Shown here: positions 3-27,596 of the stretch, piece by piece
How positions within the stretch are numbered: the first letter of the stretch is position 1
Layout of the letters: every line of letters starts with the position of its first letter
NCBI GenBank assembly: GCA_964446315.1
Contig: CAYUNY010000001.1
Location: forward strand, 1-29,565
DNA from: an uncultured Candidatus Saccharibacteria bacterium
GTDB taxonomy: Bacteria > Patescibacteriota > Saccharimonadia > Saccharimonadales > UBA4665
DNA length: 29,565 nt
Reading direction: 5' to 3'
Made by a program: the position numbers and the translations under genes
Notes under the pieces: model-generated
Told to the model about the DNA's origin: nothing
Seen by the model: the letters and a program-made list of their open reading frames with translations, nothing else
Database searches by the model: none

Positions 3-1499
3 GACCGGCTCAAATCTGCCGGTTACGAATTCCATTCCCAGACCGACACCGAGGTTATTCCCAACCTTATCGACTACTACCGCCAGCAATTGCCCTCGCT
101 GGAAGACGCCTTCAAGGCCGCCCTGAACGACGTCCGTGGCGCCTACTCCATCGCCGCCGTGGCCACCGAAGACCCCGACACCATCTACGCCGCCCGCCTG
201 TCCAGCCCGCTGGTCATCGGCGTCGGTAATAACGAACACATACTGGCCTCCGACCCCTCGGCCATCATGGAACACACCAAAAAAGTCATTTACCTGGAAG
301 ATTACGACCTGGCGATTATCAAAAAAGACGGCGTCACCATCCACAACCTCAAAGACGGCAAGCAGGTGGTGCCCAAAACCGAACTGCTCGACTTCGAAAA
401 TGAACAGGCCTTGCTTGGTGAATACCCGAACTTTATGCTCAAAGAGATTTTCGAAGCCCCCGCCACCATCCGCTCGGCCAGCCTGGGCCGCGCCCTGGCC
501 GATCGCGACCTGGTCAAGCTCGGCGGCCTGGAAAGCGTCCTGCGACAGCTGGAACACATCGACCGCGTCGTCATCGTGGCCTGCGGCACCAGCTACTACG
601 CCGGCTTGGTCGGCGAGTATCTTATAGAAGAGTTGGCCGGCATTCCGGTCGAGGTTCACCTGGCCAGCGAGTTCAAATACCGCGACGAGCCGTTTTCGCG
701 CAGTACCGTGCTATTGGCCATTTCACAGTCCGGTGAAACCGCCGACACCATCGCCGCCCTCAAGAAAATGGAAGATTTCGGCGTCCTGCGCCTTGGTATC
801 GTCAACGCCGTCGGCAGTACCATTGCCCGCATGACCGACGCCGGCGTTTACTGCCACGCCGGGCCGGAGCGGGCCGTGGCCAGCACCAAGGCCTTTATCG
901 CCCAGGTGACCGTCCTCAGCCTGATCGCCTTGCACCTCAGCGGCGGCAAAACCAAACGCTTCAAACCTCTTCTTAAAGAGCTCGACGCCCTGCCGGCCAA
1001 GGCCCAGGCGGTACTCGACCAGGCCGATGAGATCAAGAAAATGGCCGAAAAATACGCCGACTACCGCGACTTCCTCTTCATCGGCCGCCACAACGCCTAT
1101 CCATCGGCCATGGAAGGCGCGCTCAAACTCAAAGAAATCTCCTACCTGCACGCCGAGGGTTACGCCGCCGGCGAAATGAAGCACGGACCGCTGGCCATGA
1201 TCGACGAAAACTTCCCGACCTTCGCCATGGCTACCGACTCGCCACTACTCGAAAAAACCTACAGCAATATCCAGGAAATCCGCGCTCGTAAAGGCCCCGT
1301 CATCGCCATCGCTACCGAAGGCAACAAAGAAATCAAAGACCTCGTGGACGACGTTATTTATATCCCGAACACACTCGAAGAAATGCAGCCGTTACTGCAA
1401 ACCGTCGCTACCCAACTATTCGCATATTACATTGCCATGCACCGCGGCCACGACGTCGATCACCCGCGCAACCTGGCCAAGTCAGTTACTGTCGAGTAA
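3..1499 (+). CDS. glmS: Glutamine--fructose-6-phosphate aminotransferase (isomerizing), 5'-truncated by the window edge
   Basis: The frame is open upstream of the listed ORF start (DRLKSAGYEFHSQTDTEVIPNL from nt 3). It carries the GlmS SIS motifs ACGTSYYA, SQSGETADT, VASTKAF, EGALKLKEISY, GEMKHGP and the invariant C-terminus PRNLAKSVTVE. Confidence 0.98.
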   Translation, partial: DRLKSAGYEFHSQTDTEVIPNLIDYYRQQLPSLEDAFKAALNDVRGAYSIAAVATEDPDTIYAARLSSPLVIGVGNNEHILASDPSAIMEHTKKVIYLEDYDLAIIKKDGVTIHNLKDGKQVVPKTELLDFENEQALLGEYPNFMLKEIFEAPATIRSASLGRALADRDLVKLGGLESVLRQLEHIDRVVIVACGTSYYAGLVGEYLIEELAGIPVEVHLASEFKYRDEPFSRSTVLLAISQSGETADTIAALKKMEDFGVLRLGIVNAVGSTIARMTDAGVYCHAGPERAVASTKAFIAQVTVLSLIALHLSGGKTKRFKPLLKELDALPAKAQAVLDQADEIKKMAEKYADYRDFLFIGRHNAYPSAMEGALKLKEISYLHAEGYAAGEMKHGPLAMIDENFPTFAMATDSPLLEKTYSNIQEIRARKGPVIAIATEGNKEIKDLVDDVIYIPNTLEEMQPLLQTVATQLFAYYIAMHRGHDVDHPRNLAKSVTVE

Positions 1500-1501
1500 A
1501 G

Positions 1502-2275
1502 CTAGACGACGTGAACCATGGCTTCGACAGCGGCAGCTGTTTCGCGCCAGTGTGAGATTTCGAGACTGTCGATACCAAAAGCTTTGACGGGGTAGTCGTT
1601 ACCACCCTCTTGAAGGCGGTCGCCGATAAACAAAATGTCTTCTTTGGAGATATTGAGTAGTTCCATGAGTTTCTTCATTCCGTAGGCCTTGTCGATACCC
1701 TGCTTGGTAACGTCAATGGAAGTAATGCCGCCGACGCGGACCTCAAACTCGGGTATCAAGGGTGCTATGTAGTCCCGCAGTTCGTTTTTCATTTTGTTGT
1801 CGGGGTCCCAGGCCTCTTTTTGGCGGACACCTTCTTTACCGAGCACATCGACGATGTCCTGTCCGAGCACCGAGAAAGTCACCTGGCTACCACGATCTTC
1901 AACGGTTTCGCCGTAAACCTTATCCGCCCGGTACCCCAAATCATCAAAACCCTTGTTCAGGGCATCCGTAATTTTCTTTTTCTCGCCTTCGTTAAAATCT
2001 TCGGCGTAAACCTTCTGCCAATCCTGCTTGGCCGGATCGTAAGTGTAGTAGCGGGTACCGCAGGTAGGCATAAGGTGCAGTTTTTTCAGCTTTTCACCGT
2101 CGGCCTTAAGATTACTCAATAGTTGTTTCTGGAACTGTTCGAACTTGCCACCAGAAATCACGCAAACCTGGAACTTATCCAGTAGGTCGTTAAGGGCCTC
2201 CGACATCCGGTCTTCGACCGGCGATTTGCTATCGGCCAGCGTGCCGTCCAGGTCAAAGGCAATCAGTTTTTTCAT
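1502..2275 (-). CDS. HAD-superfamily IIB hydrolase/mutase, eukaryote-type phosphomannomutase-like
   Basis: Motif I FDLDGTL, motif II VISGG, EDRGSQVTFS, GGITSIDVT, and FIGDRLQEGGNDYPV, which resembles the PMM F-G-D-x4-GGND motif. Its start overlaps the manC stop by 4 nt. Confidence 0.8.
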   Translation of the reverse strand: MKKLIAFDLDGTLADSKSPVEDRMSEALNDLLDKFQVCVISGGKFEQFQKQLLSNLKADGEKLKKLHLMPTCGTRYYTYDPAKQDWQKVYAEDFNEGEKKKITDALNKGFDDLGYRADKVYGETVEDRGSQVTFSVLGQDIVDVLGKEGVRQKEAWDPDNKMKNELRDYIAPLIPEFEVRVGGITSIDVTKQGIDKAYGMKKLMELLNISKEDILFIGDRLQEGGNDYPVKAFGIDSLEISHWRETAAAVEAMVHVV

Positions 2276-3309
2276 TGCTTCCCCCCAATGCGCTTGCTGA
2301 CGTCACCGACTTTCTGTGCCAGGTCTTTACGCGTAATCACCAGGCCTTGCGGCGTGTTTACGACCGCTATATTATCCAGGCCAATCACCGCAACAGGTTT
2401 GTCTTCCAGGTTTTGGACGTAAGAATTGCGCACTGACTCCAGCTCGACCCTGCCCGAAACGTGGTTGCCCTGCTCGTCGCCACCAACGGCTTTGTGCAGG
2501 TCGCTGTATGAGCCCAGGTCCATCCAGTCGAACGATGCCGGCACCACCAGCAGGTCCTTAACTTTCTCGATCAGCGCGTAGTCGATGGCGTCGGGCTCAA
2601 GGCTCAGATAAACGTCCTTGTAGTCCGCATCGGAGGCGCCGACCAGCTTTTCGTAGGTTGCGGCCAGGTCGGGCGCATAAGCTTTCATTTTTTGCTTGAA
2701 TGTATCAACCGAGCCCACAAAGTAGCCGCCGTTCCATAAATAGTTGCCGCTGGACAGGTATTCCTTGGCGACTTTGAATTCCGGCTTTTCTTTGAAGCTC
2801 TTCACGCCGTAGACAATGTTGCTCTCATCAAACAGGTCATCCTTTTGAATATAGCCAAAGCCGGTTTCCGGGCGGTCCGGTTCAATCCCCACCAGCACGA
2901 TGCGGCCGTTGGCTTTGGAGACCTCGGTGGCAACATTGAAGCTCTGAATGAAACCCTGGGTGTCGCGGATGTAGTGGTCGGCGTGCATGAAGGCCACCGG
3001 TTCGTCATTGTCGTGTTGCTTGCCGATATATGCCAGGGCGGCCACGATGCAGTTGGCGGTGCCGCGTCGGGCCGGCTCCACAATAAAACCTGTTTCGGGC
3101 AGTTCGGGTAGTTGTTCCCGAACATGCTCTATGTGACTGCTGTCGGAAACAACATAGATTTTGTCGGTCAGTTTTTTGGCACGATCAAAAGTATGCTGTA
3201 ACAGCGACCGGTCGTCGCCGTTAATTTTCAGCAGGTGTTTTGGGTAATCAGGAGTCGAGAGCGGCCAAAGGCGTGTTCCCGAACCGCCCGCTATAATCAC
3301 GATTATCAT
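2272..3309 (-). CDS. manC: Mannose-1-phosphate guanylyltransferase (no C-terminal PMI/cupin domain)
   Basis: [55 protein letters not shown] and WMDLGS, followed by a C-terminal beta-helix-like segment; 345 aa. Confidence 0.93.
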   Translation of the reverse strand: MIIVIIAGGSGTRLWPLSTPDYPKHLLKINGDDRSLLQHTFDRAKKLTDKIYVVSDSSHIEHVREQLPELPETGFIVEPARRGTANCIVAALAYIGKQHDNDEPVAFMHADHYIRDTQGFIQSFNVATEVSKANGRIVLVGIEPDRPETGFGYIQKDDLFDESNIVYGVKSFKEKPEFKVAKEYLSSGNYLWNGGYFVGSVDTFKQKMKAYAPDLAATYEKLVGASDADYKDVYLSLEPDAIDYALIEKVKDLLVVPASFDWMDLGSYSDLHKAVGGDEQGNHVSGRVELESVRNSYVQNLEDKPVAVIGLDNIAVVNTPQGLVITRKDLAQKVGDVSKRIGGKQ

Positions 3310-18048: not shown

Positions 18049-18999
18049 TTATTTTGGGGAAATTTTAGCCTTGGTGCTAGAAAGTCGCTTTGCAAGCCTC
18101 CATGCTTTACTTTTTTTAATATTATCAAGATCGGTCTTATGTTTGTTTAGTTCAGCGATCTGCTCTTCTTTAGCCTTCAAGATACCCTCGTAGTGGCTGA
18201 TTGTATCCTTTATGTATGCTTGTAATTCGTCCCCCTGTTCGCCAACTTGTTTAGAGCTCCAATGTTCTGAAAGCACACCAATAGGGCTTATCGATTCTTG
18301 TATCGGTTCGTCAGAACATATCAACATGAAGAAAAGTACCTGCTCCGGCTTCAGGGGCGCAGCATTAATGATTCTGATTTTTTCATCGCTCTCTTCAAAA
18401 ATCATCTTATCGTTACTGACTCCGCTATAAAGCCATGTGCCTTGGTAATAAGAGTCAACGTATTTAAAGTGTTTTTTTAAGAAATCAACGAGTTCTTTGT
18501 GCTCATACTCATGTACATGGAAGTGATTACCTTCTGGAAACTCCAGATCGTTTGGGGTAGAAAGAATGAGCTGTCCCTTGGGCTTAAGCACTCTTTTTAT
18601 CTCCCGCAAAAACTTCTCTGCTTCTTTAATGTGCTCCAACGTTTCAAATGTTACGACACTTTCTACCGAGTTATTATCAATCGGTATTTTGGTTCCGCTA
18701 CCAACCTTAAAGGTAATGTTAGGGTTATTAAAATTTTTCTTGGCGTACTCTACGGCCCCCTTGTCAATGTCAACTCCGTAAACCTCGTTTGCTGTTTGGG
18801 CAAGCATTTGTGTGCCATATCCCGACCCGCAAGCAATATCAAGAATAGTTTTTCCCTTAACCAGTGGTGCCGCAGACTGGTATCTGGCTATATGGTCGCC
18901 GTATGCAATGGTAGCTTTGTGGTGCTCAGGCACCATCCTCTCTCCATCGTTAGGCAGTTCTACCTTTTTCTTGTTCGTGGTTGGCTTCGGTGTTCGCAT
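18049..18999 (-). CDS. Class I SAM-dependent methyltransferase with C-terminal coiled coil (putative glycan chain terminator)
   Basis: ERMVP..HIARY, ILDIACGSGYGT, VTFETLEH, LILSTPN, NHFHVHEY. The tail LKAKEEQIAELNKHKTDLDNIKKSKAWRLAKRL is heptad-like. Confidence 0.85.
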   Translation of the reverse strand: MRTPKPTTNKKKVELPNDGERMVPEHHKATIAYGDHIARYQSAAPLVKGKTILDIACGSGYGTQMLAQTANEVYGVDIDKGAVEYAKKNFNNPNITFKVGSGTKIPIDNNSVESVVTFETLEHIKEAEKFLREIKRVLKPKGQLILSTPNDLEFPEGNHFHVHEYEHKELVDFLKKHFKYVDSYYQGTWLYSGVSNDKMIFEESDEKIRIINAAPLKPEQVLFFMLICSDEPIQESISPIGVLSEHWSSKQVGEQGDELQAYIKDTISHYEGILKAKEEQIAELNKHKTDLDNIKKSKAWRLAKRLSSTKAKISPK

Positions 19000-19059: not shown

Positions 19060-20280
19060 TTACGCAACGCCAATGACGATATCGTGCTTAGCGTTGATGA
19101 AAGTTCCGTTTTTAACTTTTTTACGTACTCTAAATTTGCAGCTGGATTCAGCCCAGTCAAGAATAGTGGTCCCGTCACTATTTGCGATTGCCGGAGCAAC
19201 AGAAAACGTTCCTGAGTTAAAAACATTGGGTATGCGCCATTGAAGCGTTGTGGTAGTGCCCGCTTTTAGCTCAACCGTCTTTACGTGATTAATCATTGTG
19301 TTGGAGTTGAATACTCGGTGCTCATCTTCATCCGAAATAATGATGCCATAAACAGGCTCATTAATATTTTTATTTGCTTTGTATGTAACTTTGATAAGAA
19401 TGGTGCTGTCCTCGTCTGCAAAGTCAGCCTTTGTCTTCATGTCTTCGCCAAGCGCAGTGGCACTAATAACGCGGGCGTCTCCAGTGCCCCAGCGTGTCTT
19501 AGTCTTAGCTTTTTCCTCTGCCTTTTTCTTTTGGTCCTCGCTTGCATTTAATACATCCATGTACTCGTTTACAACTCTGTCTATTTTGTCATTGGTCACA
19601 ACCTTGCCCTGCTCAAGCAATAGTCCTCTATCGCAGTATTTTAGTAAAGCATCGCTGTCGTGACTTACAAAAATTACAGTCTTTTTGTCCTGTTTGAGCT
19701 GTCTAAAGTAGTCGTAACATTTTTTTTGGAAGAGTGAGTCGCCTACGGCCAAAACTTCGTCAATGAGTAACACATCTGATTTTGCACGTATAGCAATCGA
19801 AAAGGCTAGCCTTACCTGCATGCCTGAAGAGTAGTTTTTTAACTTCTGGTCCATGAAACGCTCAATCTCGGCAAAATCAACGATGTCACTGTACATTGTG
19901 TTCATCTCTTTCCTCGAGAAACCGAGAAGAGCGCCATTTAGAAAAACATTTTCGCGGCCAGTGAGCTCGGGGTTAAAACCAACACCAAGCTCTATGAAAG
20001 GTGTCAGTTTGCCGTTGATAGAAATACTTCCTTCGCTGGGAGAGTAGATTCCTGCCAACATTTTAAGTAAGGTGCTTTTACCACTACCGTTACGTCCAAC
20101 GATGCCAAAGAATTCTCCTTTTCTTACTTCAAATGAAACATTCTTAAGCGCATGTTGCTGCTCAAATGTTAGCTTTCGCCTGTAGAAATTAAGCACCGCG
20201 CTTTTGATAGAGGTGTTTTTTTCGTGAGGTAGCTTAAACGTTTTACTCACATTTTCCACTTTAATTGCGACATCTGACAT
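19060..20280 (-). CDS. wzt: Polysaccharide ABC exporter ATP-binding subunit with C-terminal Wzt_C-like domain
   Basis: Walker A GRNGSGKST, ELGVGFNPELTGREN, signature YSSGMQVRLAF, Walker B LLIDEVLAVGD, VSHD. A ~160-aa beta-rich extension starts RWGTGDA. Confidence 0.95.
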   Translation of the reverse strand: MSDVAIKVENVSKTFKLPHEKNTSIKSAVLNFYRRKLTFEQQHALKNVSFEVRKGEFFGIVGRNGSGKSTLLKMLAGIYSPSEGSISINGKLTPFIELGVGFNPELTGRENVFLNGALLGFSRKEMNTMYSDIVDFAEIERFMDQKLKNYSSGMQVRLAFSIAIRAKSDVLLIDEVLAVGDSLFQKKCYDYFRQLKQDKKTVIFVSHDSDALLKYCDRGLLLEQGKVVTNDKIDRVVNEYMDVLNASEDQKKKAEEKAKTKTRWGTGDARVISATALGEDMKTKADFADEDSTILIKVTYKANKNINEPVYGIIISDEDEHRVFNSNTMINHVKTVELKAGTTTTLQWRIPNVFNSGTFSVAPAIANSDGTTILDWAESSCKFRVRKKVKNGTFINAKHDIVIGVA

Positions 20281-20282
20281 GG

Positions 20283-21083
20283 TTATATGTTCTCCGCGAA
20301 GTACTTTGATTCTTTACGGAAATAGCTGATACCTCCGACTAGCGCCAGTATAACGACCAGAAAGGGCAGGAATTGATACCAGCCGCCTTGGAAGATTTGG
20401 TGGGCGGTGGTTGCGTCATGGGTTATGGCAGCGTATCGTGCGTCTTGGATGGCTTGGCCCATAGGATTAATTAAAATTAGTTTCTGGAAGGTAAGATTTG
20501 GGATCTGAGATAACGGATAAAGTATGGGCGTTAGATAGAAGCCTGCTTGTAGAATCACCTCCCAGATGTAGTTAACGTCTCGGAATTTTACAAAAGCCGC
20601 CGAAAGAAACATTGACAACCCTAGAGCAAACAAATAGACCTCGACCAAAATAAGCGGTACCCAGAGTATTGTGGGCGTCACGTCGACATGGTTAACAATC
20701 ATGAAGACGATGATCACTATAAGGTTTAAGAAGAGGTTGATTAGCGCTGAAATGCTACTGCTGAGCACAATTATCCATCTTGGTATTTTTATCTTGCGGA
20801 TCAGGTCACCCCGTCCCACGATTGAGCTAAGGCTTTGTACGGTCATTTCGTTAAAGAAGTTCCAGATGACGATACCAAGCAATAGATAGACCGGATAGTG
20901 CGGAATGCCAGCGCCGAGTTTCAGGAATTTTACAAATACTATGTAAAGGATTACGAAAAGTAGTAGTGGGCGTAGTAGCGACCAAGCGTAACCAAGGGCG
21001 GAACCCTGGTAACGTAGCTTGAAATCGGTGCGAACCAGCTCGCTGAGCAAGGCACGGTTCTGCTTGGAGTAAATGTGACGCAT
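20283..21083 (-). CDS. wzm: Polysaccharide ABC exporter permease (Wzm/RgpC-like)
   Basis: DFKLRYQGSALGYAWSLLRP, RGDLIRKI, FRDVNYIWE, YLTPILYP, NPMGQAIQDAR, FAENI; 6 TM segments. Confidence 0.95.
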   Translation of the reverse strand: MRHIYSKQNRALLSELVRTDFKLRYQGSALGYAWSLLRPLLLFVILYIVFVKFLKLGAGIPHYPVYLLLGIVIWNFFNEMTVQSLSSIVGRGDLIRKIKIPRWIIVLSSSISALINLFLNLIVIIVFMIVNHVDVTPTILWVPLILVEVYLFALGLSMFLSAAFVKFRDVNYIWEVILQAGFYLTPILYPLSQIPNLTFQKLILINPMGQAIQDARYAAITHDATTAHQIFQGGWYQFLPFLVVILALVGGISYFRKESKYFAENI

Positions 21084-21092
21084 TATTTTAGA

Positions 21093-21125
21093 GTATTATA
21101 GAGGAAATGAGCGCTTCAGTCGATG
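21093..21125 (+). repeat. 33-bp imperfect direct repeat, copy 1 (contains overlapping bidirectional -10 boxes)
   Basis: gtattatagaggaaatgag-cgcttc-agtcgatg; 27/33 identical to 23507-23539. Confidence 0.85.
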
Positions 21126-22469
21126 AATAAGAAGGTCCGTGGCACGCGTCCTCAAAGTCCTCGCCTCCTGTTTATCGCCCCAACAAACGACTTAATAGCC
21201 GGCGGCGAGATATCGCATTTCGAGCTTATTAAAGCCGCTGTTAACCGTGGCTGCAGGGTGCATGTGGTGTTGCCGGGGGACGGCTATTTCGCCAACCAAC
21301 TTGCCAGGCGGAAGATAGGTCACACTGTTGTTCCCTTTTCCTATTGGCACCCGGAAATCCCAGCAATGGACGTCGCCCTACAAGATACGGAAGCCATTTT
21401 AAAGATATCTGCTCTCATAAAGAGCCTGCAAATCGATTCTGTGATAACCAACACGCTGAACATGCCTTGGGGGGCGGTCGCGGCGGCAATGACTAACGTG
21501 CCGCACGTATGGATAGCGCGCGAATTTCCGTTACATGAATTTAAGTATCTTGGGGATCGCTATGATTTTATTGGCGGTTTTTCAAACTTGGTGATAGCGA
21601 ACTCCAAAAATCTCGCCAAATATATGCGTGACGAGGCCGGCCTGACGAAAGTTAAGCATTTTTATTCGTATGTGAATGCAGATCACCTAGCGCTAGATAC
21701 CGGTATCAAGAAGACGCGTGTCGTATGTGTTGGCAACATTCATTCCCGTAAGAACCAGCTGGAACTCATACGGGCGATGGCGCTCGTTAAGGAAAAGTAT
21801 GGGGAGGACTATAAGCTACTTATTATCGGGCACGCCGTAGAGAAACCCTACTACAAGAACCTCCAGCAAGAGGTTAAAAAAACCGGCCTGCAGAATATGG
21901 TTGAATTTCTGCCATTTTCGGAACAGCCATGGAGCTACATCAGGCCGAACGATGTGTTCGTGCAAACATCTGTCTCGGAAAGTATTGGCCGTAGCATGAC
22001 CGAGGCGATGAAACTTGGTATCGTCTGCATCGGCTCCGATATCCCGGGCATACGTGAGGCGTTCGGGTTGGGAGGTGGCATTCTTTACAAGAGCGGGGAT
22101 CCCCTGGACCTGGCTGCGAAGATTTCGATGGTCTTAGAAAGTCCCGAAAAATATAGGCAACAGGCCAAGCAAGCCCAAAAGCAGGCCTCGAAAAACATGT
22201 CTGAAAAGACGGCGCACGATCCTTTCTTTCGCGAACTCGACAAGTTATTCGGCGCGTCTAATCCCAGAGGGGAGCTGGCACATCTGCTACCCCTCCTTGA
22301 GGGCGAAGTTACCAACCATAAACGACATCTTGCGGAGCTGTCAATAATAGGCAAGGAGAATAAAGCGCTGGCGTTGCACCTCAAGGCTACCGATGCCGAT
22401 TTACAGAATGTGGTTCAGTCCAAGGCGTGGAAATTTGTACTACATATACGAAAAGTCTTAAGAAGATAG
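21123..22469 (+). CDS. GT4 glycosyltransferase with C-terminal coiled coil and SKAW tail
   Basis: GGEISHF, VITNT, HVWIARE, VGNIHSRKNQ and the EX7E motif ESIGRSMTE. Tail: ..LKATDADLQNVVQSKAWKFVLHIRKVLRR. Confidence 0.85.
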   Translation: MNKKVRGTRPQSPRLLFIAPTNDLIAGGEISHFELIKAAVNRGCRVHVVLPGDGYFANQLARRKIGHTVVPFSYWHPEIPAMDVALQDTEAILKISALIKSLQIDSVITNTLNMPWGAVAAAMTNVPHVWIAREFPLHEFKYLGDRYDFIGGFSNLVIANSKNLAKYMRDEAGLTKVKHFYSYVNADHLALDTGIKKTRVVCVGNIHSRKNQLELIRAMALVKEKYGEDYKLLIIGHAVEKPYYKNLQQEVKKTGLQNMVEFLPFSEQPWSYIRPNDVFVQTSVSESIGRSMTEAMKLGIVCIGSDIPGIREAFGLGGGILYKSGDPLDLAAKISMVLESPEKYRQQAKQAQKQASKNMSEKTAHDPFFRELDKLFGASNPRGELAHLLPLLEGEVTNHKRHLAELSIIGKENKALALHLKATDADLQNVVQSKAWKFVLHIRKVLRR

Positions 22470-23498
22470 CTTGTTGTAGGCTTGAAACCAGCTAATAAAT
22501 TCATCCAGGCCGTCGGTGTATGGGGTTTGTGGCTCGTAGCCGATGGCGTTCTTTAGCTTTGAGTTATCGGCGTCGGTAAAGGGGGCTTCCTCTTGGCTCA
22601 TCGGCACGCGTTTAATCTGGGGCTTTACGGCCAGCTTGTCGGCTATGTATGCAAGCACCGCCTCGATGTTAACGGGCTCGCTGTGGCCGATGTTAAAGGT
22701 TGTATGGTTAGGGTACGACTTATCGCCAGCTTGTTTTCCGTCATAAAACTTGTCAATTAGGGTTTGCACCGCCTGTGCGATGTCGCCGACGTAAGTCATG
22801 TCACGCAAGACGTCGCCGTTGCCACGTAGCTCGACCGGCCGGTTTTTAGCCAGCGCTTCGGCCCACCTGTAATAGGCCATGTCGGGCCGGCCCCATGGTC
22901 CGTAAGCACTAAAGAACCTCATGGCTATACAGCGTAGCCTCGAGTTACGTGAGTATGACTTGGCCATTAATTCGTTACTTATCTTGGTGGCCGCGTAAAG
23001 CGATAAAGGCCTGTCGCACTGCTCCGTTTCTTTCCACGGCATGTTGGCGTTTGATCCGTAGACTGAAGAGGACGAAGCGTAAAGGAAGAGTTTCACGCCA
23101 TGCTTGCTGGACTGCTCGATAATATTGCTGAAGCCGTCGATATTGGAGTGGATGTAGCTGGTGGGGTTTGTGGCCGAGTAGCGGACGCCGGCCTGGGCGG
23201 CCAGGTTGATGACTACTTCGAAGTGTTGCCTATCAAAAATGGCGGTCATGCCTTTAGCGCCGGCGATGTCTTGGTTGATAAATTTAAGGCGTTGCCCTGT
23301 TCCGTTTGCTTTTACGCCCAGGTTTTTGAGCCTGTCTTTTTTAAGTCGGGGGTCGTAGTAGTCGTTCAGGTTGTCTATGATTGTCAGGTTGGCCGTGGTT
23401 TTTTCAAGTAGCCTTTTGGAGACGTGATAGCCGATAAAGCCCGCGCCTCCGGTAATCAAAATGTTCTTGATCGGATTCCTTGGGGGAGAGTGTGGCAT
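22458..23498 (-). CDS. NAD-dependent epimerase, UDP-glucuronate 4-epimerase-like
   Basis: [70 protein letters not shown]. The start is trimmed from 23636 to ATG 23498 so that it does not overlap the divergent GT2. Confidence 0.88.
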   Translation of the reverse strand: MPHSPPRNPIKNILITGGAGFIGYHVSKRLLEKTTANLTIIDNLNDYYDPRLKKDRLKNLGVKANGTGQRLKFINQDIAGAKGMTAIFDRQHFEVVINLAAQAGVRYSATNPTSYIHSNIDGFSNIIEQSSKHGVKLFLYASSSSVYGSNANMPWKETEQCDRPLSLYAATKISNELMAKSYSRNSRLRCIAMRFFSAYGPWGRPDMAYYRWAEALAKNRPVELRGNGDVLRDMTYVGDIAQAVQTLIDKFYDGKQAGDKSYPNHTTFNIGHSEPVNIEAVLAYIADKLAVKPQIKRVPMSQEEAPFTDADNSKLKNAIGYEPQTPYTDGLDEFISWFQAYNKLSS

Positions 23499-23520
23499 GT
23501 TTTGCGGTATTATAGAGGAA
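23499..23520. promoter_or_regulatory. 22-bp divergent spacer with overlapping -10 hexamers
   Basis: TATTAT on + (23508-23513, 7 nt before ATG 23521) and TATAAT on - (23514-23509, 10 nt before ATG 23498). Confidence 0.6.
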
Positions 23521-23539
23521 ATGAGTAGCCTAGTCGATG
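23507..23539 (+). repeat. 33-bp imperfect direct repeat, copy 2
   Basis: gtattatagaggaaatgag-tagcct-agtcgatg; includes the first 19 nt of the GT2 CDS. Confidence 0.85.
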
Positions 23540-24549
23540 TTAGTGCTTGCGTGGTCGTGCCCAATTGGAATGGCGCCGACAGTCTAAAAAGATGTCTTGA
23601 TTCACTGCTTAAGCAAAGCCTGAAGCCACATATCATCGTGGTCGATAACGGTTCTGTCGACGGATCGGTTGGGATTATTGAAAGCTATGCCTGCATCGAG
23701 CTTATCCAACACGCTAGAAACCTTGGTTATGCCGGCGGTGTTAATGCCGGCTTTAAGCGGGCTATTGAACTTGGCTTTAATTACGCCGCGCCATTCAACA
23801 ATGATGCCGTGGCCGACGAGCATTGGTTGGAGAAGCTAGTTGACCACATTGATAAGCACTCCGAGGTTGGTGTCGCGGCCTGCAAGCTACTGAACGCCGA
23901 TGGCACGGCGATAGACAGCACCGGTGATTACTACACCATCTGGGGACTGCCCTATCCACGCGGCCGCGGCGAGACCGGTATTAATAAGTACGATGCCGAT
24001 ACCGAGATTTTCGCGGCCAGCGGCGGTGCCAGTCTATATAGGGTAAAAATGTTAGAAGAAATTGGATTGTTCGACGAAGATTTTTTCGCCTACTACGAAG
24101 ATGTCGACTTAAGCTTCCGGGCTCAACTGGCGGGTTGGAAGGTGGCTTATGTGCCTGCGGCGATAGCCTATCATCAAATTGGCGCCACCAGCGGCAAACT
24201 AAAAGGCTTCACGACCTATCAAACGCTCAAGAACCTGCCGCAACTGCTCTGGAAAAACATGCCGCCCGGCCTTCTATGGCCGGTTTGGCGACGACTGGTA
24301 CTGGCTTATTCGTTCTTTCTTTTGCGGGCATTATCGCGCGGGCAAATTGTAGCCGTAGTGAAGGGCCTGTTTGTGGGAGCCACTCTGTGGCCCGGCACTT
24401 TACTTAAGCGCCGCAAAATCCAGGGGTCACGCAAAGTCTCTAACGAATATATTTGGAGCGTGCTGGTACATGACCTGCCGCCTAGCGCCCGGGCCTTGCG
24501 AAAACTGCGAGCTGTTTGGTGGAAACTACTCAGGAAACGTGTAGGCTAG
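23521..24549 (+). CDS. GT2 glycosyltransferase, WbbL-like (putative rhamnosyltransferase)
   Basis: VVVPNWNG, VVDNGSVDGS, NLGYAGGVN, FNNDA, GGASLYR, FDEDFFAYYEDVDL, AYH. Start set at ATG 23521. Confidence 0.88.
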   Translation: MSSLVDVSACVVVPNWNGADSLKRCLDSLLKQSLKPHIIVVDNGSVDGSVGIIESYACIELIQHARNLGYAGGVNAGFKRAIELGFNYAAPFNNDAVADEHWLEKLVDHIDKHSEVGVAACKLLNADGTAIDSTGDYYTIWGLPYPRGRGETGINKYDADTEIFAASGGASLYRVKMLEEIGLFDEDFFAYYEDVDLSFRAQLAGWKVAYVPAAIAYHQIGATSGKLKGFTTYQTLKNLPQLLWKNMPPGLLWPVWRRLVLAYSFFLLRALSRGQIVAVVKGLFVGATLWPGTLLKRRKIQGSRKVSNEYIWSVLVHDLPPSARALRKLRAVWWKLLRKRVG

Positions 24550-24553
24550 TAGT

Positions 24554-25483
24554 ATGTCGAAAATCTTGGTAACAGGCGCCAACGGTTTTGTGGGTCAGCA
24601 TATGGTAAAAGAGCTGGCTGAACATGGGGCAGATGTGTTGGCGGTTGGCGGACCTAAAGCAACTACCAGTCAGTCCAAATTCATTAAAGAACGTCTTGTG
24701 CTTGATTTAAGAAATGCTGACGAGGTCAATAAAATTGATTTCAGTGAAGTTACAGATGTCGTGCACTTAGCCGGCTTGGCCGCCTTTACACCCTCTTTTG
24801 ATCGACCGATGGAGTATATTAACACTAACATTGGTTTAGAAACTAATTTGTTTGAGGCTGCCTTAGCTCAAGATGTCCGTCCACGATTTTTAATCGTAAG
24901 TAGCGGCACCCTGTACGATCCTAAAGCCCCACAGCCCCTGACTGAAGACTCTCCGGTTGTACCTAATTCACCTTACTCGGTCAGCAAGCTTGGCCAGGAA
25001 CAGATGGCCCAATATTATCAATCACGGGGTTTTGAGTGTATCATCGCCAGGCCCTTTAACCACATTGGGCCCGGCCAAGATCTGGGTTTCATTGTGCCGG
25101 ATATTGCAAAGCAAGCCGTGGCCGTTGCGAAAGGTGACGCCAAAGAAGTGGTGGTAGGCAACCTTGATCCTCAGCGTGACTATACCGATGTTAGAGATAT
25201 AGCCCGAGCTTATCGTTTATTACTAGAAAAGGGACGGCCAGGCGAAATTTATAATGTGTGTTCCGGCGTGCCATATAGTGGTCATGATATTTTGGCTGGT
25301 ATTCTTAAGGCCGCTGGTTGCCAACCGATAGTTAAACAAGACTCTGCCAAAATGCGGTCTACCGACGTGCGGTCAGTCACCGGCAGTCACCAGAAAATTA
25401 CTAAAGACACAGACTGGCAACCTACTATACCGCTTGAGAAGACTCTTGCCGACGTCATAGCGGACTTGCAGGCTCAAGCTTAG
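24554..25483 (+). CDS. rmd: GDP-4-keto-6-deoxy-D-mannose reductase-like SDR (GDP-D-rhamnose synthesis)
   Basis: ILVTGANGFVG, HLAG, LIVSSG, PNSPYSVSK, the Rmd-typical RPFNHIGPGQ, VGNLDPQRDYTDVRD and YNVCSG. Confidence 0.78.
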   Translation: MSKILVTGANGFVGQHMVKELAEHGADVLAVGGPKATTSQSKFIKERLVLDLRNADEVNKIDFSEVTDVVHLAGLAAFTPSFDRPMEYINTNIGLETNLFEAALAQDVRPRFLIVSSGTLYDPKAPQPLTEDSPVVPNSPYSVSKLGQEQMAQYYQSRGFECIIARPFNHIGPGQDLGFIVPDIAKQAVAVAKGDAKEVVVGNLDPQRDYTDVRDIARAYRLLLEKGRPGEIYNVCSGVPYSGHDILAGILKAAGCQPIVKQDSAKMRSTDVRSVTGSHQKITKDTDWQPTIPLEKTLADVIADLQAQA

Positions 25484-26475
25484 TCGAGATCCGACGCCGA
25501 TTCTAGGCCTACATCGTGCTGTACCATCATTTTTACAAGGCTCGGGAAATCTACTTTGCGTTTCCAGCCTAGTTCTTTTTCGGCCTTAGCAGAATTACCA
25601 AGCAAGACATCCACTTCGGCTGGTCGCATAAAAGCCGGGTTTTTCTTAACGTATGGTTTCCAGTTGTTTATGCCTACTTCGCTAAAGGCAAGGTCTAGAA
25701 AGTCCTTTATGGAATGGCTTTCGCCCGTTGCCAATACATAATCGTCTGGTTTGTCTTGCTGTAACATACGCCATATCCCATCAACATAGTCGCCGGCATA
25801 GCCCCAGTCACGGCTTGCTTCTAAGTTACCGAGCTCGATGTGGGTCTGCTTATTCAAATGTATTCGCGCCACGCTGTTGCTGATTTTTCGGGTCACAAAC
25901 TCCAGGCCCCGTCTCGGGCCTTCGTGATTAAATAAAATGCCGCAACTGGCGTGCATACCGTAACTCTCGCGGTAGTTTCTGGTCGTCCAATGGGCATACA
26001 ATTTAGCAACTCCGTATGGGCTTCTTGGGTGGAATGTAGCCTTCTCGTCGTATCCCTTCTGTGAGCGGTTGTAGTCCATGCCGCCAAACATTTCCGAAGT
26101 AGACGCTTGATAAAAGCGTATGGTCTTGGTGCCGCCACTTTGGCGGATGGCTTCTAGGATGTTTAATGCGCCTTTGCCTGTGACATCAGCCACCAGTTGT
26201 GGAGCCTTGAAAGAGTACCCTACATGGCTGATAGCGGCCAGGTTATAAACTTCGTCGGGCTTTGAGGTTTCCAGAGCATGCATCAGTGAAGACTGGTCGG
26301 TCAAATCGCCTTCAATAAGGTGAACGTAAGGCTGTTCCTGCTCAACCCGCTGTTGCTTGGGGTTGTGTTGACCGCGGATCAGGCCGTAAACCTTGTAGCC
26401 TTTTTCGTGTAATAACTCTGCTAGGTGGTAGCCGTCTTGTCCGGTGATACCTGTAATAAGTGCTTGTTTTGCCAT
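25480..26475 (-). CDS. gmd: GDP-mannose 4,6-dehydratase
   Basis: ALITGITGQDG, EVYNLAAISHV, FYQASTSEMFG, PRSPYGVAKLY, GILFNHE, FVTRKI, LGNLEASRDWG, RPAEVDVLLG. Confidence 0.97.
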   Translation of the reverse strand: MAKQALITGITGQDGYHLAELLHEKGYKVYGLIRGQHNPKQQRVEQEQPYVHLIEGDLTDQSSLMHALETSKPDEVYNLAAISHVGYSFKAPQLVADVTGKGALNILEAIRQSGGTKTIRFYQASTSEMFGGMDYNRSQKGYDEKATFHPRSPYGVAKLYAHWTTRNYRESYGMHASCGILFNHEGPRRGLEFVTRKISNSVARIHLNKQTHIELGNLEASRDWGYAGDYVDGIWRMLQQDKPDDYVLATGESHSIKDFLDLAFSEVGINNWKPYVKKNPAFMRPAEVDVLLGNSAKAEKELGWKRKVDFPSLVKMMVQHDVGLESASDLD

Positions 26476-26507
26476 TCGACTAGTATAACATCTAGTATTA
26501 TAGGGGC
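26476..26507. promoter_or_regulatory. 32-bp divergent promoter gmd/GT4
   Basis: Minus: TGtTATACT (26490-26482), 6 nt before ATG 26475. Plus: TATTAT (26496-26501), 6 nt before ATG 26508. Tandem ctagtat copies at 26480 and 26492. Confidence 0.6.
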
Positions 26508-27596
26508 ATGAGCCGTATTGTTATCGACGCCCGCGAGTGGAGCACCTCAAGTGGGCGCTATGTGAGCAACTTGGTCCGTGAGTTGGAAAAGATCGATAAG
26601 ACCAACGCTTACACGGTTCTGCTGAAGCCCCGTGACATGGACGCGTGGGAGCCCGCCAACTCCAATTTTCGTAAACTGGCCTGTTCTTATAAGGAATTTA
26701 CGTTCGGCGAGCAGTTGGGCTTTAAAAAACAGCTCGATGGGCTCGGCGCCGACCTGGTTCATTTTGGAATGGCCCAACAGCCCGTCCGTTACGGTGGTAA
26801 AACCGTCACCACCATGAACGACCTGACGACCCTGCGCTTCACCAATCCCGCCAAACACCCCGTGGTCTTCTGGTTCAAACAGCGCGTCTACGCCTGGCTC
26901 AACAAAAAAGTGGCGCACAAAGCCTCGGCCATTATTACCTATTCGCAGTTCGTGAAAGACGATGTTGTGCGCTATGCGGGTATTGAGCCGGACAAGGTCA
27001 CCGTGACGCACCTGGCCGCCACCGCTATCACCGATGAGCCGGAGCCGATCATTAGCCTGCAGGACAAGCAGTTCCTGATGTACGTCGGGCGGCCGACGCC
27101 GCACAAGAACCTCGAAAGGCTGATCGAGGCCTTTGTGGAACTCAAACACCGCCATCCCGATCTGGTGCTGGTGCTGGCCGGCCGCAAAGACGCCAATTAT
27201 GAACGGATTGAGTCCGATGTTCGGCAACATACTATCAAAAATGTTGTTTTCACGGGTCATGTAAGCGAGGGGCGGCTTCGCTGGCTGTACGAAAACTGCG
27301 CGGCCTACGTTTTCCCGTCGTTGAGCGAAGGTTTTGGCCTGCCGGGGCTGGAGGCCATGGTTCAGGGCGCGCCGGTCGTTAGCAGTAACGCCACTTGCCT
27401 GCCCGAAATTTACGGCGACGCCGCTTTGTACTTTGACCCGTTGGAAGTTTCTGCCATCGCCTACGCCATTAATAAGGTTTTAACCAACAAGAGCCTGCGG
27501 GCCGACTTGGTCGAGAAAGGCCGTGACCAGTCCGCCAGATATTCTTGGCGGCGCATGGCCGAACAAACCCTGGCCGTCTACAACAAGGTGCTCTAG
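26508..27596 (+). CDS. GT4 glycosyltransferase (MtfB/WbpY-like; GDP-Man or GDP-D-Rha donor likely)
   Basis: IVIDAR, GRYVSNL, TMNDL, YVGRPTPHKNLERL, FPSLSEGFGLPGLEAM, LPEIYGDAA, YSWRRMAEQT. Confidence 0.9.
   Translation: MSRIVIDAREWSTSSGRYVSNLVRELEKIDKTNAYTVLLKPRDMDAWEPANSNFRKLACSYKEFTFGEQLGFKKQLDGLGADLVHFGMAQQPVRYGGKTVTTMNDLTTLRFTNPAKHPVVFWFKQRVYAWLNKKVAHKASAIITYSQFVKDDVVRYAGIEPDKVTVTHLAATAITDEPEPIISLQDKQFLMYVGRPTPHKNLERLIEAFVELKHRHPDLVLVLAGRKDANYERIESDVRQHTIKNVVFTGHVSEGRLRWLYENCAAYVFPSLSEGFGLPGLEAMVQGAPVVSSNATCLPEIYGDAALYFDPLEVSAIAYAINKVLTNKSLRADLVEKGRDQSARYSWRRMAEQTLAVYNKVL

Follow-up and report, generated by a model that had tools for sequence, protein, structure and literature searches.

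A glycosyltransferase/epimerase cassette between two alleles of a conserved promoter-like element in a Saccharibacteria glycan locus, and its probable origin by recombination between versions of the locus

How the tiny genomes of Saccharibacteria vary their surface glycans is poorly known, and a glycan locus of a soil Saccharibacterium (G000; assembly GCA_964446315.1, 738,373 bases in 106 contigs, 55% G+C) poses the question in concrete form. In the window, by which we mean the whole 29,565-nt stretch of contig CAYUNY010000001.1 that was analysed, a cassette of two genes, encoding a GT4-family glycosyltransferase and an SDR epimerase, stands between wzm, the permease gene of a glycan exporter, and the gene of a WbbL-like GT2 glycosyltransferase, and is bordered on either side by the same short repeat. 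What is this repeat, and how did the cassette come to lie between its copies? Our results indicate that the repeat is an element of about 45 bp, specific to this locus, which Saccharibacteria keep between the divergent wzm and GT2 genes. We put the probability at roughly 0.6 that the cassette came by recombination between two versions of the locus, which left this conserved, putative two-way promoter/start element on both sides of it.

The repeat is as a preliminary description of this DNA had noted it. The 19-mer GTATTATAGAGGAAATGAG lies at 21093–21111 and again, offset by 2414 bp, at 23507–23525; six differing bases follow it and then AGTCGATG, at 21118–21125 and 23532–23539. A repeat finder widens the similarity to 40 nt (21086–21125 versus 23500–23539, 78% identity), and the chance expectation is nil, since none of 100 dinucleotide-preserving shuffles gave a match even with three mismatches allowed. 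In the whole assembly the 19-mer, whose genome-wide copies the preliminary description had proposed to count, occurs at 21093 and 23507 only. The same holds for TATTATAGAGG, which is likewise present just twice, and the shorter GTATTATAG has four copies, three of them inside the window. The repeats enclose exactly the convergent GT4 and epimerase genes, which overlap each other by 12 bp, and the last three bases of the left repeat are the start ATG of GT4 (21123). Minus-strand start codons adjoin both copies, that of wzm (21083) at 9 nt and that of the epimerase (23498) at 8 nt; therefore, the whole divergent intergenic region is repeated.

Two explanations without any duplication, namely independent similarity of two generic promoters and an assembly artefact, deserve next to no weight. 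It is true that TAnnnT-N6/7-ATG is a common start layout in this genome and that a weak look-alike stands at 26495, but a 19-mer plus 8-mer match has zero expectation in shuffles, and the element has two copies in this genome and one in each relative. The possibility, raised in the preliminary description, that the motif is a generic promoter-plus-start signature found throughout the genome is thus not borne out: the 19-mer occurs only twice, and the 13-mer within the element is rare in the order. A generic promoter as the source of the repeat was rejected on the counts of the 19-mer (two) and of GTATTATAG (four). The weaker copy reported at 26495 does exist as a look-alike, but what it shares is GTATTATAG plus ATGAG; with only these 9 + 5 bases in common it was rejected as a third copy in the system and reads as an ordinary leaderless-type start. 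As for the assembly, the left junction is bridged by separate contigs from two metagenome runs (20792–22867 and 20600–21202) and the right junction likewise (22936–23780 and 23318–24000), with 0–1 differences across the bridging contigs. Since independent contigs of two runs bridge both junctions, the arrangement is not an assembly join. The exact repeat is also shorter than the usual assembly word sizes, which again counts against an artefact.

We searched the DNA of 60 relatives with a query running from wzm through GT2. The wzm and GT2 parts abut or overlap by 25–49 bp in G002 (same genus), G018, G023, G010 and G017 and match adjacent places in G025, and the cassette part (query bases 850–3200) found no match in any of the 60. 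Empty sites, which the preliminary description had suggested looking for, with wzm directly divergent from GT2, are thus present in the same-genus genome and in at least five other relatives; the gene order of G018 is that of G000 minus the cassette. In the junction alignment each relative has one element, which reads CAT, 8–10 nt, (G)TATTATAGAGGAA, 11–12 nt, GTCGATG (row L012 is the unpublished genome G017, and no conclusion rests on it). When loci were picked by flank similarity alone, 8 of 11 had the exact 13-mer TATTATAGAGGAA. Across the order it is found in 13 of 401 genomes, as one copy each except for the two in G000; in five of the 12 other genomes it is linked to wzm, and in seven it stands in unrelated contexts. 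A pattern scan of species-representative genomes returned 36 loci, 27 with wzm directly to the left and nine that look like chance matches. None of these 36 loci has two element copies on one contig, and a doubled element is seen only in G000. GT2 stands directly at the element in 20 of the 27 wzm-linked loci. The wzm of G000 shares 67–87% amino acid identity with the left neighbour of the element in the 27 loci, and its GT2, the conserved neighbour of wzm in relatives, shares 57–69% with the gene at the element in 26 loci.

The minus strand of the element reads as a sigma-70-type promoter, with the activity and the transcription starts predicted. Leftward, the conserved hexamers TCGACT and TATAAT (both kept in relatives), spaced by 17 bp, would drive wzm at one copy and the epimerase at the other; rightward, a TATTAT core would serve a leaderless ATG. 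The -11A and -7T of the opposite-strand hexamers coincide at both copies, and the predicted starts are 18 bp apart (21106 and 21088). Bidirectional bacterial promoters are described as arising from the near-symmetry of the -10 element, and starts 18 bp apart are given as their commonest layout (Warman et al. 2021, as described in PMC10268837; PMC12825309). The element resembles the promoters of these accounts in having one A/T core, TATTAT on one strand and TATAAT on the other, with reciprocal -11A/-7T pairing between divergent genes. Unlike the promoters described, it also holds the translation start of the rightward gene and a short upstream open reading frame (uORF), its starts are predicted ones, and it is conserved across genera at one locus and doubled in G000.

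At both copies an ATG follows TATTAT by 7 nt, which is leaderless-start spacing. In the whole assembly, TAnnnT followed by an ATG that opens at least 120 codons occurs 82 times at 6 nt and 87 times at 7 nt, compared to 12–51 times at other distances between 0 and 30, and this peak indicates that leaderless-type starts are common in this genome. The enrichment of TAnnnT-N6/7-ATG, about threefold over the other distances (roughly 30), suggests well over 100 genes with such starts; in a literature search on both terms we came upon no paper on leaderless starts in Saccharibacteria. Wzm and GT4 would depend on the left copy of the element, and the epimerase and GT2 on the right copy, which makes one resident and one cassette gene for each. 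No promoter of its own is evident for either cassette gene, and GT4 also lacks a separate start codon, its sole plausible in-frame candidate being the ATG of the element. In a protein collection GT2 has 350 aa, counted from an ATG at 23497 within the element, and the epimerase has 333 aa, beginning 13 codons in (23459); these starts differ from ours, and the start choices of automatic callers at the element are thus unreliable. None of 4227 Rfam families matched the window, and shuffled sequences fold as well as the predicted 5′ ends do (z of +1.3 to +1.6 for three of the ends and -0.1 for one).

The rightward ATG would either start GT2 directly, in what we call fused alleles, or open a seven-codon ORF overlapping the real start. 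The latter applies at the left copy, where the ATG at 21107 is not that of GT4: it opens the short ORF MSASVDE*, and GT4 starts at 21123. We compared 31 distinct wzm-linked alleles from other genomes in the region between AGAGGAA and the conserved ATG. In nine of them an ATG right after AGAGGAA opens an ORF of 6–7 codons (M-x-x-x-V-D-x) that ends in TAA or TAG exactly 5 nt past the A of the main ATG (ATGNNTAA); seven have an upstream ATG in frame with GT2, ten have no upstream ATG, and the remaining five are variants or truncated remnants. An out-of-frame upstream ATG together with a main ATG is found in 13 alleles, and the stop lies at +5 in 10 of these, the left copy included; in each of these 10, T is the last base of the second codon of the main ORF. 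This fixed stop position across alleles suggests that the short ORF is translated and that ribosomes are handed to the main start, by termination–reinitiation at ATGNNTAA, translation of the uORF being a prediction from the alleles. Related mechanisms, 5′-terminal AUGs and termination–reinitiation coupling, are outlined in PMC4965119, PMC6728339 and PMC12548453. As in the cases outlined there, a very short ORF begins with an AUG at or next to a predicted 5′ end, and its stop overlaps the main start; unlike in those cases, the overlap is ATGNNTAA and not ATGA or TGATG, and the uORF is fused or absent in some alleles.

The two copies in G000 are different alleles of this element: the left copy has the short-uORF form and the right copy the in-frame fused form (MSSLVDVSACVVVPNW...). 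The right copy is close to the allele of the same-genus genome G002, differing in one of eight spacer bases (GTTTTGCG versus GTTTTGAG) and in two bases of the leader (ATGAGTAGCCTAGTCGATGTT versus ATGAGTAGTTTAGTCGATGTT), and the GT2 N-terminus, MSSLVDV..VVPNW, matches the same-genus allele as well. The spacer of the left copy is identical to that of G018 and its leader is two mismatches from that of G300. The left copy also carries the ATGAATAAG start that is typical of short-uORF GT2 alleles from other genera, such as those of L067 and L052. The closest homologue of GT4 (66% identity) begins VFQSMNKLAVVMPKPRLLF, in which FQSM corresponds to element-encoded residues and MNKLAVV to the GT2 start of L067, with the protein's own Met after them. 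This indicates that GT4 would have been joined a few codons inside a GT2 of the short-uORF type, at a junction apparently common to a lineage about 30% diverged.

The trees of the two flanks of the cassette conflict. In the wzm tree G000 pairs with L036 (98/90), and in the GT2 tree its clade includes L043 (96/95), a locus with exactly the junction allele of G002; when the groupings are swapped, approximately unbiased (AU) tests reject them (p = 0.004 and 0.026). The second GT4, jag, yidC and rnpA on the right and rmlA and rmlD on the far left are all closest to G002. The wzm gene is not, and the central cluster differs from that of G002.

Duplication in place would have a staggered break or a replication template switch copy about 45 bp to both sides of the incoming DNA, with divergence afterwards. 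It would explain why direct repeats flank exactly the inserted DNA and why the 19-bp core is identical. However, the empty site in the same genus has the right-copy allele, so that both copies should have started as that allele, and the left copy would then have needed to evolve both the short-uORF layout and GT2-like first codons of another allele; in addition, the closest GT4 homologue appears to have the same kind of left junction, and the wzm and GT2 trees conflict. With a right copy of the same-genus allele type, a left copy of another type and two trees that disagree, recombination between locus versions fits better than duplication in place, which we consider unlikely. An insertion footprint with duplication of the promoter and first codons, one of the two origins offered in the preliminary description, holds in so far as the cassette is inserted relative to the empty site and the repeat contains the promoter and first codons; it fails in that the copies are different alleles and not a target-site duplication of one sequence.

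In the recombination that we favour, a donor version of the locus, (wzm side)–element–GT4–epimerase, would have met a resident version, element–GT2, and one junction was probably homologous and the other illegitimate, as in homology-facilitated illegitimate recombination after DNA uptake. We infer the exact recombination path, including which junction was illegitimate. The process is described for naturally transformable bacteria (PMC3240628); for Saccharibacteria we infer it here from sequence. We rank a transposon, an integrase and duplication in place below such an exchange.

The relatives also bear on a single crossover of the Campbell type, in which a circular DNA carried the epimerase and GT4 divergent around an element of its own. 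Such an event yields exactly wzm–element–GT4 and epimerase–element–GT2, with hybrid copies and a shared identical core, but it predicts the resident spacer beside wzm and the foreign one beside the epimerase, and the opposite is seen when the same-genus allele is taken as the reference. Moreover, in the element-bearing wzm-linked loci wzm is to the left of the element in 27 of 27 and the epimerase in none. We regard this route as quite improbable.

Neither is there support for the other reading of the preliminary description, a reversible, excisable module in which part of the population would have the glycan modification turned off by recombination between the copies. Crossover in the core would indeed leave what had been claimed for it, an intact wzm promoter and an in-frame GT2, and empty sites are common in relatives. 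But the spacer beside wzm in G002 is of the right-copy type, so that core crossover cannot explain the empty site of that genome. In addition, just 19 bp are identical and no recombinase gene was found in the window, where transposase and recombinase families, as the preliminary description had said, and integrase families too are absent from the 27 ORFs taken into a Pfam scan (three of which have no Pfam match). No joined (excised) form was seen in the contigs of four soil-metagenome runs from one study, which is weak evidence as contigs drop rare variants. The chance that the cassette is such a module seems slim to us.

The missing enzymes also count against a transposon or an integrase-borne element, whose repeats would be a target duplication or attachment sites, and we give this origin a very small chance. 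Direct repeats do flank a discrete gene pair, and a 19-bp core identical at both borders would suit attachment sites, though this core is also the conserved promoter core in relatives. However, the cassette consists of GT4 and the SDR epimerase only, and a search of 20950–23700 found no inverted-repeat pair at its ends. The repeat is the conserved resident intergenic region itself and, for a target-site duplication, it is long (40 nt), at 78% identity and made up of different alleles.

Several points weigh against recombination between versions of the locus, or against the way in which we read the element. Resolution of the trees is poor overall, and the groups that were tested had been chosen once the trees were in view; the wzm sister, L036, has an allele without an upstream ATG and not one of the left-copy type. 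The same junction in the 66% homologue is read from its protein N-terminus only, and co-location of the 66% and 71% homologues of the two cassette genes (below) from equal sizes of the recorded contigs. No donor with the epimerase to the left of the element or GT4 to the right of it was retrieved. It may also be that the repeat arose in place and that one copy later diverged or underwent gene conversion. A remnant of wzm codons at the epimerase start was considered and rejected, as ATGCCACAC and ATGCGTCAC agree in four of six bases after the ATG, which is within chance. As regards the element, no RNA run was listed that contains this DNA, no plus-strand promoter passed the consensus scan at either copy, and the minus-strand -10 sits 10–11 nt from the leftward start codon, which is not the leaderless distance. 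Finally, the pattern-scan loci were chosen with the motif itself, and the invariance of the 13-mer and of GTCGAT among them is thus by construction.

What the cassette does can be predicted from its two genes. The epimerase matches PF01370 with an E-value of 1.7e-49, and GGAGFIG and YAATK (the Rossmann motif and Tyr-x3-Lys) are invariant in its homologue alignment; homologues of 42–71% identity are labelled UDP-glucuronate 4-epimerase by IMG, and no NCBIfam model reached its cut-off as a curated equivalog. A UDP-sugar dehydrogenase family gene lies elsewhere in the assembly, on contig C53. The cassette would probably supply a uronic-acid sugar and transfer it to the exported glycan. As to GT4, no homologue above 30% identity was found in 150 genomes of the family, none at E ≤ 1e-50 in 400 genomes of the order and none in three same-genus genomes (completeness 76, 88 and 99%). 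The best homologues in a large protein collection, at 66% for GT4 and 71% for the epimerase, are each recorded with a contig size of 26,031 bases; for both members of the next pair (49% and 58%) the recorded contig has 32,290 bases, and for those of a third pair 446,265 bases. Since GT4 and epimerase homologues pair up by equal recorded contig sizes, the two genes seem to travel together. Among the 120 matches listed for GT2 none comes from the 26,031- or the 32,290-base contig. A GT4 query of the relatives' contigs found no relative, its peptide patterns having come from poorly conserved stretches, and a metagenome scan with a GT4 alignment found only two loci, of 46% and 33% identity, in unrelated contexts. 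The GT4 family (21123–22469 and homologues P0002–P0027) has a conserved C-terminal tail of about 80 residues with an SRSWK..RKL-like end, and some of the homologues, at 725–742 aa, are about 280 residues longer.

The wzm|GT2 junction is an insertion hot spot in other genomes. In six of the 27 wzm-linked loci GT2 is displaced, with other genes between it and the element; the inserts are a MazE/MazF pair, an RHH/PIN pair, a CdiA_C-domain protein, an AlbA_2/HATPase_c_4 protein, a minus-strand SDR epimerase and a 150-bp insert. One further locus runs into unrelated DNA after the element. Two of the six insert loci keep GT2 remnants, of 15 and 19 codons, at the element. In L032, L045, L055 and L059 the displaced GT2 is preceded by a different upstream box, TATGCTGTTTRTATG or a close variant, with no second element. 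The junctions that host toxin–antitoxin pairs, CdiA_C and AlbA_2/HATPase_c_4 proteins or an epimerase, the last unrelated to that of the cassette, are those of L032, L055, L059, L067 and L045.

From these loci one might go further and see the element as a docking point of modular glycan diversification, at which sets of promoterless ORFs, some of them without even a start codon, are captured between copies of a two-way promoter and leaderless start, which would provide transcription both ways and translation starts, either direct or by way of a seven-codon leaderless uORF; we consider this generalisation doubtful. If it were true, recombination between copies could, at population level and with no dedicated recombinase, bring in or take out defence or toxin genes as well as modifications of surface sugars, and an element acting as a general capture site would be a recombinase-free analogue of cassette systems. 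Saccharibacteria attach to host bacteria, and their surface glycans are likely contact points with hosts and phages. The locus in G000 would offer a concrete route by which such glycans change, in that a two-gene sugar unit gains expression signals through a second copy of the two-way promoter and brings none itself. The comparison also defines a putative conserved regulatory element, with a shared -10 core, a predicted leaderless start and an optional seven-codon uORF overlapping the main start.

The kinds of process that meet here, mosaic glycan loci, bidirectional promoters and recombination with one illegitimate junction, are each known. Like the gene cassettes of integrons, the GT4/epimerase pair consists of promoterless genes beside a resident promoter with repeats at the cassette borders; unlike them, it has no integrase, no attC-like folded site and no array, and the border repeat is the predicted promoter itself. 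JUMPstart/ops of enterobacteria is a short conserved non-coding sequence upstream of polysaccharide genes that acts through RfaH antitermination and a long leader. The wzm|GT2 element is likewise short, conserved beside polysaccharide genes and common to different clusters; we claim no sequence similarity, and the element differs in being a predicted promoter plus start site. Stepwise build-up of effector–immunity arrays by 'sequential displacement' has been proposed to proceed through homology-facilitated illegitimate recombination (PMC5361080). As in that proposal, there would be a conserved anchor with genes added beside it, a resident gene shifted downstream and short remnants or repeated junctions left over, with no recombinase involved; unlike in the proposal as set out there, the anchor is a promoter/start element between divergent genes and not the end of an upstream gene. 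The locus also resembles the mosaic clusters for O-antigens and cell-wall glycans of the ABC-transporter (Wzm/Wzt) pathway covered in PMC4379981 and PMC9445017. It has Wzm, Wzt with a C-terminal glycan-binding domain, a methyltransferase, rml genes, gmd and variable transferases, with side-branch genes gained and lost between relatives. Unlike in the clusters covered there, the host is a Saccharibacterium, and the gained pair is wired through a second copy of a resident promoter and not by joining an operon.

Table 1. Positions in the window of the element copies, their predicted signals and the adjoining genes
Feature	Position	Strand	Remarks
wzm, ABC-2 permease of glycan exporter	20283–21083	-	Pfam PF01061
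Left element copy, short-uORF allele	21081–21131		wzm start codon to GT4 start and uORF stop
TATTAT, -10-like hexamer	21094–21099	+	shares base pairs with minus-strand TATAAT; 7 nt before ATG 21107
Promoter-like site for wzm: -35 TCGACT (21123–21118), 17-bp spacer, -10 TATAAT (21100–21095)	21095–21123	-	consensus scan 10/12
Seven-codon uORF, MSASVDE*	21107–21130	+	TAA overlaps GT4 start (ATGAATAA)
GT4-family glycosyltransferase, 448 aa, cassette gene	21123–22469	+	Pfam PF00534/PF13439
SDR epimerase, 346 aa from ATG 23498 (333-aa call in protein collection), cassette gene	22458–23498	-	Pfam PF01370
Right element copy, fused allele	23496–23541		epimerase start codon to first codons of GT2; near same-genus allele
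Promoter-like site facing epimerase: TCGACT, 17-bp spacer, TATAAT	23509–23537	-	consensus scan 10/12
GT2, WbbL-like glycosyltransferase	23521–24549	+	Pfam PF00535
Look-alike: GTATTATAG, GGGC, ATG of second GT4, divergent from gmd	26495–26510	+	6-nt leaderless-type spacing

The window as a whole is a glycan locus. Its left part comprises, in order, glmS, a HAD/PMM-like gene, manC and rmlBCDA, followed by two unclassified membrane proteins, gtrA, a GT2 and a C-methyltransferase; then come two unknown ORFs, a 1019-aa GT2-GT2-WsaF protein, a methyltransferase, wzt and wzm, and beyond the cassette GT2, a second epimerase/reductase, gmd, a second GT4, jag, yidC and rnpA. The Wzt ATPase has PF00005 and PF14524, so that the C-terminal glycan-binding domain (Wzt_C) is present; with the Wzm permease, whose match to the NCBIfam galactan export permease Wzm/RfbD model is below the cut-off, this is an ABC-transporter-dependent glycan export locus. 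The succession of a Wzt_C-bearing Wzt (19060–20280) and a methyltransferase (18049–18999) resembles exporters that read a terminal methyl cap. Between GT2 and the second GT4 (24554–26475) lie gmd and the reductase gene, a pair that G018 has and that was not found in the corresponding region of the same-genus G002, which is another presence/absence difference.

Some further loci with the element or its 13-mer stand out. L034, L037 and L062 belong to records labelled Dormiibacterota or Verrucomicrobiia and have a Saccharibacteria-type wzm–element–GT2 arrangement with wzm at 69–87% amino acid identity, probably as a result of mis-binning. L035 and L052 have about 85–90 extra bases between the wzm start and the element, containing a GC-rich hairpin followed by T's. 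L014, L015 and L016, from other families, have TATTATAGAGGAA and, about 70 nt after the 13-mer, a longer stretch of conserved sequence (AGCACCTTGTAAAACAACTCTTTGAG...) that is not related to wzm; a conserved small RNA or gene may begin there.

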